DNA of 64,000 bases from the NCBI RefSeq assembly GCF_013122565.1, contig NZ_CP053258.1. One strand, given 5' to 3'. The position numbers were made by a program, and so were the translations under genes. Position 1 is the stretch's first letter; every line of letters begins with the position of its first letter. The DNA comes from Escherichia coli. Its GTDB lineage: Bacteria; Pseudomonadota; Gammaproteobacteria; Enterobacterales; Enterobacteriaceae. This document shows, piece by piece, positions 7,781 through 9,819 of the stretch. The notes beneath the pieces are model-generated. The model was not told the DNA's origin and searched no databases. It saw nothing but the letters and a program-made list of their open reading frames with translations.

Positions 7781-8002
7781 TTACCCTTCCTCGCGCAGCT
7801 TACGCTGGTATTCGACACCATCTTCCTCATACACTTGCCAGATGCCAGGAACACTGGATCTTGCTGTTTGCAATTGATTTTCCAGGTATTGTTCTACCGC
7901 TTCTCGTAATAGGTCTGCACGCGGAAGATTACGCTGCACCTCAAGATCATCAAGTTGCTTAATCACCTCATTCGATAAATCGAGTAAAATTCTGCTCATA
8001 TC
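7781..8002 (-). CDS. yiiF: Ribbon-helix-helix (CopG/Arc-like) small DNA-binding protein
   Basis: ORF 7781-8038; likely start [12 protein letters not shown] at 8002; shares the REAVEQYLE motif with its neighbour. Confidence 0.7.
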
Positions 8003-8117
8003 CCAACCTGCCAGAGGGTTCGTAAATATTTCACCCATATCATTTTTGAATCTATGGAGAGAAAAGTACCCTTGCCGAATCTTAAAAGAAAGCTCATTTA
8101 CGCATCATTTTTTATTT

Positions 8118-8241: not shown

Positions 8242-8460
8242 TCATTCCTTATGCTCCTTACACTGATCATCAACAACTACTGTCTCACCCCTTTGCCTGC
8301 CTCCCTTTGCTTTACGCACCGGAAATTGCTGCCGCTCCAGATATTGCTCAACCGCTTCGCGTAAAATTGCAGATCGTGAAACCTTACGCCAGCCCCGAAG
8401 CTTGTTCAGCCGTTTAATTGCCTCTTCTGATAAATGAAGAAAAACCGTATTCATCGTCAT
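8242..8460 (-). CDS. yiiE: Ribbon-helix-helix (CopG/Arc-like) small DNA-binding protein, paralog of yiiF
   Basis: ORF 8242-8469; [11 protein letters not shown] motif; tandem paralog of yiiF including its upstream region. Confidence 0.7.
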   Translation of the reverse strand: MTMNTVFLHLSEEAIKRLNKLRGWRKVSRSAILREAVEQYLERQQFPVRKAKGGRQRGETVVVDDQCKEHKE

Positions 8461-8556
8461 TGCCACCACCTAACATATATTATTCATTAATGTATGTACG
8501 AAAACTACGCCGGAAAATTAATTAACGAAAGCGGATTTTTGCATGTTGTTTTGTTT

Positions 8557-8575
8557 TTGCGAGGCGTTTTCCAGA
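8557..8575 (-). promoter_or_regulatory. Conserved upstream motif ttgcgaggcgttttccaga, copy 2 (upstream of yiiE)
   Basis: Same 19-mer as copy 1; also followed by the related gttgcagtt box seen after copy 1. Confidence 0.5.
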
Positions 8576-8985
8576 AATAATAAGAGCGTTGCAGTTGTTT
8601 CAATTGTTACTCAAAAATGGTTTAGTTATCGCCCAAAATGAATTATAGGTGCTATGAATATATTATATTCAGGGATATTTATTTTTTCATTGGATCTTTA
8701 TTTGCATAATCTGAATGGTGTAGCCGAAAAATGTCAGCATCCTAACAGCACCCGGATTTACGGTGAAATTAATCATCCATCACAGACCGGTCAGTACTGC
8801 TACCAACCGGTCTTAACTTGCTCATCGTTATAATTTTGTTGGTAACAGTTCGGGAAACAAGGAATTCCTTCCGGAACACCCCTGACATCATCCGATAGCA
8901 TTGACGTCAATCATCGGCGCGACGATGAGTTTTTTAATCGCATCATAGGGTGGCAACGGTCAGCACGATTACGGGTCATAGCAAA

Positions 8986-9090
8986 ACTCCTGAGCAGGTG
9001 GCACTACGCCGCTTTCACAGGAGTTCTGAATGCTGGTGCTTTCTGTATGGCATAACCATGCCTCTAACGGTTAAGTGCTTGCAGCACATG
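8986..9090. repeat. About 105-bp direct repeat, copy A (overlaps 3' end of antitoxin gene)
   Basis: aactcctgagcag..gccgctttcacaggagttctgaatgctggtgctttctgtatggc.. recurs at 10802-10906 with roughly 85 percent identity by eye. Confidence 0.8.
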
Positions 9091-9354
9091 TTGCGGATCA
9101 TTGGCAATCGCTCGCAGCAAAGCCTTTGCAGGCCCGGTCGGTGAACGTCGCCCCTGCTCCCAGTTACGCAACGTGTCTACACTTACAGAAATAAGATCGG
9201 CAAATTTAGATTGTGACAACCCTGAAGCGCGGCGTATTTCTTTGATTTTCATAGCATCAACTTCAAAAGTCCGCGAAGGCTGTCGCGTTCCTTCAATAAT
9301 TTCATTCATCTGGGCCATGCTGTGAGTCAACCGCTCAAAAAGTGCCTTATCCAT
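9064..9354 (-). CDS. HTH (XRE-family) antitoxin, HigA-like
   Basis: 96 aa; helix-turn-helix segment IRRASGLSQSKFADLISVSVDTLRNWEQG; start abuts the stop of the upstream toxin ORF. Confidence 0.7.
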   Translation of the reverse strand: MDKALFERLTHSMAQMNEIIEGTRQPSRTFEVDAMKIKEIRRASGLSQSKFADLISVSVDTLRNWEQGRRSPTGPAKALLRAIANDPQHVLQALNR

Positions 9355-9666
9355 TTACCACCTCGTATTTAACAACCGGAGCATTGCTTTTTCCTGGGGA
9401 GACAGATCATCTTTAATACCCTTACGATAAATAAGCAGTAATCTGATCTCATAATGTTTAACCTGATGAAAGTAAATAACCCTGACACCAGCACGTTTCC
9501 CCTTTCCTCCTGACACCCATCGAATCTTTCTTAACCCACCAGTTTCAGGTATTACCTCACCATAGTCAGGATTCAAGGCCAGGAAAAACTGAAAACGACT
9601 GAATTCATCGTCGGTCAGCAGTTTTTGAACATCTTCAGTAAAAATTTCCGTTTCGATGAAGAGCAT
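9355..9666 (-). CDS. RelE/HigB-superfamily (Gp49-like) toxin
   Basis: 103-aa basic protein placed upstream of an XRE antitoxin (toxin-first hig-type layout); conserved-looking GVRVIYF...LLLIYRKG core. Confidence 0.65.
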   Translation of the reverse strand: MLFIETEIFTEDVQKLLTDDEFSRFQFFLALNPDYGEVIPETGGLRKIRWVSGGKGKRAGVRVIYFHQVKHYEIRLLLIYRKGIKDDLSPQEKAMLRLLNTRW

Positions 9667-9787
9667 AATTATACGCCATTGGCTTAGAGTAACAATCCTT
9701 TTTGTACGTCATTGACGTACCCTTGAAACCACTAGCTTACTGATAGTGCTCCAGCAAAACCACGTCTCTGCCGGGTTTGTCTTTACA

Positions 9788-9807
9788 TTTGCGAGGCGCT
9801 TTCCAGA
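9788..9807 (-). promoter_or_regulatory. Conserved upstream motif tttgcgaggcgctttccaga, copy 3 (upstream of toxin-antitoxin operon)
   Basis: One-mismatch copy of the yiiE/yiiF upstream 19-mer, about 120 bp upstream of the toxin start. Confidence 0.5.
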
Positions 9808-9819
9808 TTTTTCACGCCC

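Follow-up and report, generated by a model that had tools for sequence, protein, structure and literature searches.

A toxin–antitoxin gene pair of the HigB-2/HigA-2 type beside fdhE in Escherichia coli, with candidate operators

The DNA analyzed here, referred to as the window, is a stretch of 64,000 nucleotides of E. coli contig NZ_CP053258.1, in which a preliminary description had pointed out two small minus-strand open reading frames with abutting stop and start codons. Both were found at the following positions, each with an ATG start, together with a motif that precedes the second of them.

9355..9666, minus strand: toxin gene, higB-2-like, PF06296 family; 103 amino acids plus stop, ATG start, from the list of open reading frames
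9064..9354, minus strand: antitoxin gene, higA-2-like, labeled "NadS family" by NCBI; 96 amino acids plus stop, ATG start
9358..9364, minus strand: Shine-Dalgarno motif GAGGTGG for the antitoxin, within the last toxin codons (…R-W-stop), read from the sequence

The antitoxin ATG (9354-9352) directly abuts the toxin stop codon TAA (9357-9355), and all homologues examined likewise have the toxin gene first and the two genes abutting. The terminal R-W codons of the toxin are retained in nearly all orthologues, and the toxin start has no purine-rich motif comparable to the GAGGTGG of the antitoxin. The toxin is, as had been described, a basic protein, with a computed pI of 9.3. The helix-turn-helix (HTH) character given to the downstream protein was also confirmed, its XRE-type HTH being matched by the Pfam models HTH_3 (E 3.1e-9) and HTH_31 (E 9.4e-8).

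The similarity of both proteins to HigB-2 and HigA-2 is, in sequence comparison, far above chance. The toxin was aligned by phmmer with the HigB-2 entries of the PDB (9tv9, 5ja9, 5ja8, 8a0x, and 5mje) over residues 2-99 without gaps, with E values of 1e-19 to 1e-18 and an identity of 42-43% (BLASTP, 42%, E 3e-25). The preliminary description had made its case depend on family-level similarity to RelE/HigB toxins, and such similarity is evident (best E 1.1e-19). The toxin residues R49, R62, Y80, and K82 align with the catalytic residues R51, R64, Y82, and K84 of Vibrio cholerae HigB2 (VcHigB2), whose replacement by alanine lowers the activity 170- to 3000-fold (PMC5416850), and they are invariant in 15 homologues, down to an identity of 47% for the joined toxin-linker-antitoxin sequences. 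An AlphaFold2 (AF2) model of the toxin-linker-antitoxin fusion was obtained with a pLDDT of 84 and a pTM of 0.71, in which the toxin domain, with a pLDDT of >90 except for the beta2-beta3 loop, has a RelE/BECR fold with a C-terminal helix, and HigB2 chains were its top matches by Foldseek (TM-score 0.80-0.86, rmsd 1.6-2.5 Å). By analogy with VcHigB2, we infer that the toxin would be a ribosome-dependent mRNA endonuclease.

With respect to the family, the only Pfam match of the toxin was a partial, sub-threshold one to PF06296 (E 0.0077, 16.9 bits), but orthologues at 70-74% identity have precomputed PF06296 matches, some marked weak, and VcHigB2 itself matches this model. On these sequence relationships, the toxin is assigned to the PF06296 "RelE/HigB-2" family. 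It had been called Gp49-like, and this assignment (Gp49/DUF891) was rejected because no PF05973 match was present among the Pfam domains with E values of up to 10. Thus, the profile searches that the preliminary description had proposed yielded HTH_3 for the antitoxin and nothing for PF05973, and only the weak PF06296 match for the toxin. The Pfam models for Rts1-type HigB (PF05015) and K-12 HigB/YgjN (PF09907) and the NCBIfam toxin models likewise gave no match to it.

The antitoxin was similar to HigA-2 in the PDB over the HTH domain (E 1.8e-8), and its C-terminal domain matched 5j9i by Foldseek with a TM-score of 0.79-0.83. In the AF2 fusion model, antitoxin residues 3-21 form a helix and residues 28-31 a strand, both with a pLDDT of >90, so that the protein is predicted to bind the toxin with its N-terminal helix and strand and to dimerize and repress through a C-terminal XRE HTH domain. 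It also reached 60.7 bits (cut-off 60; E 1.2e-16; residues 5-89) against the NCBIfam NadS model NF041265, and the RefSeq annotation is nadS. An identification as the MqsA antitoxin (TIGR03830/PF15731) was rejected, as the score was 39.1 bits against a cut-off of 61.8 with only the HTH part aligned; the 96-amino-acid sequence is devoid of cysteine and therefore does not have an N-terminal CxxC zinc-binding domain such as that of MqsA. Taken together, the pair is, by its sequences, a real toxin–antitoxin module of the V. cholerae HigB-2/HigA-2 type, in agreement with the initial proposal of a toxin-first, hig-type type II module composed of a RelE-superfamily toxin and an XRE-HTH antitoxin.

The pair had been placed in a strain-specific segment, or islet. 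Comparison of the window with K-12 MG1655 by BLAST delimited the segment and the repeats within it as follows.

8858..12721, no strand assigned: segment of 3,864 bp absent from K-12 MG1655
8985..9090, no strand assigned: left copy of a direct repeat of ~105 bp, overlapping the last 9 antitoxin codons
10802..10905, no strand assigned: right copy of the direct repeat of ~105 bp, from BLAST and pairwise alignment

The segment contains the toxin–antitoxin pair, a hydrolase gene, and most of an open reading frame of 617 amino acids. Its absence from K-12, along with the lack of a PF09907 or PF05015 match, agrees with the earlier statement that the pair is not the K-12 higBA locus. The strain-specific nature of the segment was not upheld, as the pair is present in about 2,635 of 5,426 complete E. 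coli genomes, that is, about half, and at the same site beside fdhE in ten genera, the copies adjacent to fdhE including those of Salmonella, Enterobacter, Klebsiella spallanzanii, Cronobacter, Yokenella, Kluyvera, Leclercia, Lelliottia, and Pluralibacter. The neighbors are housekeeping genes (fdhE, fabY, and an esterase gene), none of them a defense gene. The locus is an old, conserved, syntenic position beside fdhE across Enterobacteriaceae and is ancestral, not acquired. In K-12, the two flanks of the segment meet at one base, with a junction microhomology of 1 nt, and the first ~100 nt of the 617-amino-acid open reading frame are retained, which indicates a deletion in the K-12 lineage; the loss of the pair by a clean deletion is the most likely explanation of these sequences. 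The direct repeats (10802-10905 versus 8986-9090, 86.7% identity by BLAST and 87% by pairwise alignment) bracket the toxin–antitoxin and hydrolase genes, and strain SMS-3-5 has kept the left repeat element but not those genes. Four states were observed: the pair with the 617-amino-acid gene (the window), the pair only (FDAARGOS_497), the 617-amino-acid gene only (SMS-3-5), and neither (K-12).

The region upstream of the toxin and that downstream of the antitoxin contain several candidate regulatory elements.

9704..9720, no strand assigned: candidate operator O1, a perfect palindrome GTACGTCA-N-TGACGTAC with the core TACGT-N5-ACGTA, from an inverted-repeat search
9672..9686, no strand assigned: candidate operator O2, a near-palindrome TAAGCCAATGGCGTA with TAAGC-N5-GCGTA, read from the sequence
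9686..9712, minus strand: candidate sigma-70 promoter P1, ATGACG-N15-TACTCT, derived from conservation
9668..9695, minus strand: candidate sigma-70 promoter P2, TTGTTA-N16-TATAAT, from a promoter scan, 10 of 12 matches
9788..9806, minus strand: conserved upstream block CTGGAAAGCGCCTCGCAAA, kept in 13 of 14 orthologous upstream regions
8982..9028, minus strand: hairpin, possible operon terminator; two inverted 21-nt arms, 76% complementary, around a 5-nt loop

O1 has 8-nt arms, which are 100% complementary across a 1-nt gap, and is the sole exact GTACG-N7-CGTAC in the 64 kb of the window; it is invariant across five genera, in which it was found by way of the protein. Its half-site and spacing are those of the VcHigA2 operator TGTACGC-N5-GCGTACA, which has been footprinted and crystallized (PMC11006873). 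O2 lies 33 bp from O1, center to center, and ends 5 nt before the toxin ATG. Its block AGCCA(A/G)TGGCGTA is invariant in the five-genus alignment, and a perfect or near-perfect copy was present at the same position in the homologues on a Pseudomonas plasmid, in Acinetobacter, and on a Pantoea plasmid. In sequence, O1 and O2 follow the TACGY-N5-RCGTA pattern of the VcHigA2 operator, and they are predicted to be binding sites of the antitoxin.

P2 was the single promoter called by the scan in the window copy and has the best-scoring -10 element, its Leclercia counterpart being called as well. However, as only 1 nt separates this -10 element from the toxin ATG, a transcript from P2 would probably not include the start codon of the toxin; in V. 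cholerae, the -10 element (TACACT) overlaps the right arm of the operator in the register of P2, but 6 nt before the ATG. Because P2 alone cannot explain the translation of the toxin, the second candidate, P1, was derived from conservation. In the TAnnnT hexamer that immediately precedes O2, A2 and T6 are shared by 14 of 14 chromosomal orthologues. The -35 element of P1, inside O1, is TTGACG in most genera, with a 16-nt spacer elsewhere versus 15 nt here, and the Leclercia copy was called by the promoter scan as TTGACG-N16-TACTAT. The transcript from P1 is predicted to start near 9679-9680, which would give a leader of ~13 nt without a Shine-Dalgarno motif. The upstream block at 9788-9806 is conserved whatever the upstream neighbor; only the copy in Pluralibacter, which has lost the toxin by deletion, has decayed. 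The block agrees in its GG-N10-GC spacing with what we take to be the arrangement of sigma-54 promoters, and it is without the C of TGGCA that is usually conserved in them; based on spacing and conservation, a sigma-54 promoter is suggested here as an idea and not as a claim. The hairpin, located 36 nt downstream of the antitoxin stop codon within the left direct repeat, may be the operon terminator. In an Rfam search of 8400-10000, there was no match to a known RNA element or a type I or III antitoxin RNA.

The closest known system is HigB-2/HigA-2 of V. cholerae (VCA0468/VCA0469; PDB 5JA8, 5JA9, 5JAA, 5J9I, and 8A0X), with which the pair shares the toxin-first order, the ungapped toxin similarity with the same four catalytic residues, the predicted RelE-like fold with a C-terminal helix, operator half-sites of the form TACGY with a 5-nt spacer, and, as judged by analogy with HigA-2, an antitoxin with an N-terminal neutralizing segment followed by a C-terminal XRE HTH. 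The differences are that the N-terminus of the E. coli toxin is shorter by 2 residues; that the genes abut, whereas those of V. cholerae overlap by 14 nt; that there are two candidate operators versus one; that the toxin ATG comes 5 nt after the operator versus 10; and that the site is a fixed one beside fdhE in the core genome, in contrast to a superintegron cassette. In addition, of the four VcHigA2 residues that contact bases, two are replaced in the E. coli antitoxin (R68 by D60 and E71 by R63) and two, N72 and R77, are kept. The PF06296 "RelE" family (PF_RelE) is characterized by the toxin-then-antitoxin order and ribosome-dependent mRNA cleavage and includes relE-yiaG modules (Gerdes 2025, PMC11980606). 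The present toxin belongs with this family, and its antitoxin is likewise of the HigA2/YiaG-like type, but, unlike the relE-yiaG subfamily, the toxin does not have an extended disordered N-terminus, and its own PF06296 score is sub-threshold. HigB/HigA of Rts1, HigB/HigA (YgjN/YgjM) of K-12, and the Gp49 systems are also toxin-first with a RelE-superfamily toxin and an XRE-HTH antitoxin, but the toxins belong to PF05015, PF09907, and PF05973, respectively, none of which the present toxin matched. VcHigB2 is structurally nearer to RelE than to Rts1 HigB (PMC5416850; PMC11980606). HigBA2 of Acinetobacter baumannii was rejected as a close relative because its toxin, HigB2Ab, has a GP49 domain despite its name (PMC5906591).

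Purifying selection on both genes is strong. Against other genera, dN was 0.16-0.23 in the toxin gene and 0.09-0.15 in that of the antitoxin; as dN/dS was mostly not computable because of saturated synonymous sites, this reading uses dN together with the few ratios that were defined (0.05-0.08). The toxin was, at the same time, found to be inactivated independently six times by deletion (as in Pluralibacter), truncation, or frameshift with the antitoxin intact, the converse case being absent, and an ST131 genome and strain SE15 were found to carry a frameshift allele of the toxin. Indirectly, toxin-only pseudogenes in six lineages favor a toxin that would be harmful and countered by its antitoxin. 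This frequent decay also indicates that the toxin is dispensable. A 53-amino-acid "HigB-2" entry of strain 536 was not counted as a pseudogene, as it may reflect an old mis-annotated start. The toxin allele of the window, with I48, is rare (5 contigs versus at least 1000 for V48), but the copy is intact and therefore probably active.

We consider it likely, with a probability of roughly 80%, that the pair is a chromosomal type II toxin–antitoxin operon of the V. cholerae HigB-2/HigA-2 type and works as proposed by analogy with that system. The toxin would enter the ribosomal A site and cleave the mRNA being translated, with R49, R62, Y80, and K82 as its RelE-like active site. The antitoxin would neutralize it with the N-terminal segment, folding on it as a helix and a short strand, would dimerize through the C-terminal XRE HTH domain, and would repress the operon by binding to O1 and O2, which cover the promoter region. 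An excess of antitoxin may be favored at translation because no Shine-Dalgarno motif precedes the toxin start, whose leader would be very short or absent, whereas the antitoxin has the strong GAGG motif.

It could alternatively be that the module has been domesticated and serves mainly in regulation, with the antitoxin (HigA-2/NadS/YiaG-like) kept as a transcription factor of the host and the toxin a decaying or attenuated passenger. The antitoxin is indeed better conserved across genera than the toxin (81-88% versus 69-75% identity), 9 of the 10 E. coli sampled encode the same antitoxin protein, nearly all changes in the gene being synonymous, and the antitoxin is intact in all copies with a deleted, truncated, or frameshifted toxin. 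Moreover, a fixed cross-genus synteny is unusual for a mobile toxin–antitoxin pair, the conserved block at 9788-9806 travels with the module, and K-12 has an orphan relative, YiaG (PMC11980606). However, strong purifying selection between genera acts on the toxin too, all of whose catalytic residues are invariant, most copies are intact, the operator-like sites seen in the 64 kb searched are only those of the module, and a broken toxin with an intact antitoxin is likewise predicted by a working toxin–antitoxin pair; we regard domestication as unlikely. It is quite unlikely, in our estimation, that an ancient, vertically inherited pair has been wired into host regulation; in that case, the antitoxin would be kept as a regulator even when the toxin is lost, the overlapping promoters would give one transcript with the toxin start codon and one without it, and the upstream GG-N10-GC block would be a sigma-54-type or other host-factor input.

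For two further roles, both raised in the preliminary description, the analysis gave no evidence. A primary function in abortive infection against phages is very unlikely: RelE/ParE-superfamily modules are discussed as defense toxins (PMC11980606), and homologues occur in seven phage records and in PHROGs families 5869 and 2104, but some of the phage records are bacterial contigs or are without annotation, the toxin matched none of the families of PADLOC-DB 2.0 and the antitoxin only generic HTH models, the neighbors are of the housekeeping type, and the vertical syntenic inheritance is unlike that of typical defense islands. The least probable role is that of an addiction module stabilizing the surrounding variable segment. 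Although V. cholerae higBA-2 can stabilize plasmids (Christensen-Dalsgaard and Gerdes 2006, as summarized in PMC11980606) and the family is common on plasmids (757 records), about half of the E. coli genomes are without the pair, all four states of the pair and the 617-amino-acid gene occur, the bracketing direct repeats would permit precise loss, and the region is ancestral. Against both roles stands the repeated loss of the locus or inactivation of its toxin. The working toxin–antitoxin operon is thus the reading that we prefer.

The pair is already known. UniRef names these exact proteins "Toxin HigB-2" and [quoted passage not shown] and RefSeq lists a RelE/ParE-family toxin and NadS. Because of these labels and the old, conserved position beside fdhE, the finding, although correct, is ordinary. 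Searches of the literature for the RefSeq accessions, "NadS," and experiments on E. coli HigB-2 returned nothing specific, and in the literature that could be searched, we found neither a kill/rescue experiment on the E. coli pair nor a paper explaining the name NadS.

As a discovery, the pair therefore amounts to little, its family being structurally and biochemically characterized and already named. The analysis makes two corrections, namely that the family is PF06296/HigB-2 and not Gp49, and that the locus is an old, core-adjacent one beside fdhE, most likely lost by K-12, and not a strain-specific island. What it adds is the recurrent toxin-only decay, including the ST131 and SE15 frameshift allele, and the conservation of the HigA-2 operator motif, which extends from Vibrio to the homologues in Enterobacteriaceae, Pseudomonas, and Acinetobacter. 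If the two-promoter reading is true, it would provide a simple route to antitoxin excess in a toxin-first operon, and K-12, being without the locus, is a clean host for testing the pair.

The toxin and antitoxin are encoded by two minus-strand ORFs, in which the antitoxin ATG directly follows the toxin stop codon TAA, as determined by reading the sequence. This bears out the preliminary description of two abutting minus-strand ORFs, and the features considered are as follows.

7781-8038 and 8242-8469, minus strand: CopG/ribbon-helix-helix proteins (YiiF-like and YiiE, respectively), between fdhE and the pair
8985-9090 and 10802-10905: direct repeat of ~105 bp, 87% identical, flanking the pair and the esterase gene
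9064-9354, minus strand: antitoxin ORF, 96 aa
9355-9666, minus strand: toxin ORF, 103 aa
9672-9686: candidate operator O2, a near-palindromic second copy (TAAGCCAATGGCGTA), found by sequence reading and ending 5 nt before the toxin ATG
9704-9720: candidate operator O1, a perfect palindrome (GTACGTCA-N-TGACGTAC), found by repeat search
9788-9806, minus strand: upstream block (CTGGAAAGCGCCTCGCAAA), ~120-140 nt 5' of the toxin ATG
9820/9896-10803, plus strand: alpha/beta hydrolase, hormone-sensitive-lipase type; LipP1-like at E 4e-71, which falls short of the curated cut-off
10972-12825, minus strand: intact 617-aa ORF

The upstream protein was confirmed to be basic (computed pI of 9.3) and the downstream one to carry an XRE-type helix-turn-helix (Pfam HTH_3, E 3.1e-9), as claimed. 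In a sequence search of solved structures, V. cholerae HigB-2 (VcHigB2) gave the only matches to the toxin (E 1.1e-19 to 1e-18), aligned without gaps across residues 2-99, with an identity of 42% by BLASTP, and the antitoxin matched HigA-2 (VcHigA2; E 1.8e-8). The toxin was also described earlier as HigB/Gp49-like. The Pfam search gave PF06296 "RelE" as its sole match, at a sub-threshold E of 0.0077, and no match to Gp49 (PF05973) or to the HigB families; PF06296 also takes in VcHigB2 itself. A recent classification of the RelE/ParE superfamily assigns HigB-2 to PF06296, a family in which the toxin gene comes first and mRNA is cleaved in a ribosome-dependent manner, and which is kept apart from Rts1 HigB, K-12 HigB, and Gp49 (PMC11980606). 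Thus, "HigB" is right in the HigB-2 sense, and "Gp49-like" is wrong.

The pair is already known: the UniRef entries for these very proteins read "Toxin HigB-2" and "Antitoxin HigA-2". In RefSeq, the toxin is a "type II toxin-antitoxin system RelE/ParE family toxin" ("hypothetical protein" in older annotations) and the antitoxin, which scores narrowly above the cut-off of the NCBI NadS model (60.7 bits vs 60), is a "NadS family protein". No experimental work on the E. coli pair was found in the literature searched, which included few subscription journals. In K-12 BW25113, nadS (RS26030) is annotated and reported to be expressed (PMC12350097); as K-12 lacks the pair at this locus, it has another NadS-family gene elsewhere.

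Alanine substitution of VcHigB2 R51, R64, Y82, and K84 lowers activity by 170- to 3000-fold (Hadzi et al, PMC5416850). The residues aligned with these, R49, R62, Y80, and K82, were invariant in six aligned toxins and in 15 toxin-antitoxin pairs whose joined sequences are as little as 47% identical. For a toxin-linker-antitoxin fusion modeled with the 15-pair alignment (pLDDT 84, pTM 0.71), the best solved matches in Foldseek were HigB2 chains, at TM 0.80-0.86, and the C-terminal domain of HigA2, at TM 0.79-0.83. In the model, residues 3-21 of the antitoxin are helical and 28-31 form a strand, both at pLDDT >90, in agreement with the published folding of the HigA2 N-terminus on its toxin as a helix plus strand (PMC5416850). 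We infer from this that the antitoxin may neutralize the toxin by its N-terminal helix and strand, as HigA2 does.

O1 is the sole exact GTACG-N7-CGTAC in the 64-kb window. It shares with O2 the layout TACGY-N5-RCGTA, which is also that of the VcHigA2 operator, TGTACGC-N5-GCGTACA, known from footprinting and a crystal structure (PMC11006873) and read here directly in the V. cholerae locus sequence. In orthologous loci of five genera picked by protein identity, both operators were invariant and the surrounding sequence had diverged. Distant homologues on a Pseudomonas plasmid and an Acinetobacter contig likewise have the motif immediately upstream, as does, with two copies, one on a Pantoea plasmid; it was not found upstream of the Morganella plasmid or phage Shamal homologues. 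Of the four residues with which VcHigA2 contacts bases, the antitoxin shares N72 and R77 but has D60 in place of R68 and R63 in place of E71. The sequence thus lends good support to a predicted autorepression via O1 and O2. Within the conserved O2 core, CCAATGG, lies an ATG (9677-9679) from which an out-of-frame mini-ORF of 14 codons runs across the toxin start; a message initiated mid-O2 would have this ATG at its 5' end.

A consensus scan called one promoter, TTGTTA-N16-TATAAT (9695-9668). Its -10 ends 1 base before the toxin ATG, so that its transcript would probably lack the toxin start codon. The V. cholerae -10 shares bases with the right arm of the operator and stops 6 nt short of the ATG, rather than 1 nt, and the usual -10-to-start spacing suggests a leaderless toxin message there. 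A second candidate promoter, 18 nt upstream of the scan-called one, is suggested by a TAnnnT hexamer (TACTCT, 9691-9686), of which A2 and T6 were kept in all 14 chromosomal orthologues, and by the element ahead of it within O1 (TTGACG in most genera, ATGACG in the window); in Leclercia, the scan calls both promoters. Transcription from this candidate would start near the O2 center and leave a ~13-nt leader without a Shine-Dalgarno motif. The antitoxin has GAGGTGG 3 nt before its ATG, and the candidate layout would fit weak toxin and strong antitoxin translation. The upstream block was kept in 13 of 14 orthologous loci, independently of the upstream neighbor, and the Pantoea plasmid copy has a similar TGGCAG-N5-GGGCA at a roughly equal distance. 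We take its spacing, GG-N10-GC, to be sigma-54-like.

The pair had been placed in a strain-specific segment or islet, which its distribution contradicts. Of 5,426 complete E. coli genomes, 2,635 carry the 761-bp locus at ≥80% coverage, almost without exception as a single chromosomal copy, and the pair lies between yiiE/fdhE and esterase/fabY. Orthologues (toxin 69-75%, antitoxin 81-88% identity) adjoin fdhE at the same position in Yokenella, Enterobacter, Klebsiella spallanzanii, and Cronobacter, and a Salmonella record has the same order (lipase, HigB-2, regulator, fdhE). A DNA-pattern scan added Leclercia, Lelliottia, Kluyvera, and Pluralibacter, for which the check covered the pair and its operators and confirmed both. 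Homologues were common on plasmids (757 records, mostly <60% identity) and rare in phage records (7). The hydrolase gene, divergently transcribed from the pair, accompanies it in E. coli, Enterobacter, K. spallanzanii, and Salmonella and is absent in Yokenella and Cronobacter. On the other side, the YiiF-like protein and YiiE, neither of which matched NCBIfam, belong to an antitoxin-like fold class and have no adjacent toxin.

K-12 MG1655 lacks exactly 8858-12721 (3,864 bp): the flanks meet cleanly at a single base, where there is 1 nt of microhomology, and nothing takes the place of the missing stretch. Of the 617-aa ORF, K-12 retains the initial ~100 nt. Given this junction, the retained stretch, and the cross-genus synteny, the most economical reading is a deletion in the K-12 lineage. 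The direct repeat, which covers the last nine antitoxin codons and holds a hairpin with 21-nt arms, occurs only at this locus, in one or two places per genome. It could mediate pair loss in genomes of the SMS-3-5 type, in which the repeat and the 617-aa region are present and the pair is absent; FDAARGOS_497 shows the reverse, the pair without the 617-aa region. The 617-aa ORF, split and partly annotated as "transposase" in SMS-3-5, was found at ≥80% coverage in 1,061 of 5,426 E. coli genomes, with a best identity of only 98%. It had no Pfam, NCBIfam, or PDB sequence match; its CKSAKDR resembles the CX5R phosphatase motif of SopB/IpgD. Taken together, the synteny, the K-12 gap, the direct repeat, and the SMS-3-5 and FDAARGOS_497 states indicate that the region is an old, mosaic, deletion-prone spot and not an acquired island.

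In V. cholerae, the pair acts by mRNA cleavage and is able to stabilize plasmids (PMC11980606). Here, the many independent losses leave no sign of the suggested stabilization of the surroundings, and the suggested role in phage defense is not borne out, as the toxin had no PADLOC match and the neighbors are housekeeping genes. Against other genera, the toxin had a dN of 0.16-0.23 and the antitoxin one of 0.09-0.15; synonymous sites were saturated between genera, and the few defined ratios were 0.05-0.08. The antitoxin protein was identical in nine of ten sampled E. coli genomes. The toxin alone was inactivated at least six times: by a deletion in Pluralibacter, an internal deletion in E. chuandaensis, nonsense codons in Lelliottia and one K. 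spallanzanii genome, a +G frameshift at nt 168 common to E. coli ST131 OX637959 and AVS0366, and Q26* in DS566-2. In the latter three genomes, the toxin is labeled a pseudogene by RefSeq and the antitoxin protein is unchanged, and the 69-aa product of the frameshift allele occurs on 70 contigs, strain SE15 among them. The window toxin is intact, with a rare I48 (5 contigs vs at least 1000 for V48). The antitoxin was intact in every toxin-inactivated case, and no intact toxin with a broken antitoxin was seen among the loci examined. Such a one-sided pattern is expected of an active toxin and is also compatible with a role of the antitoxin in its own right.
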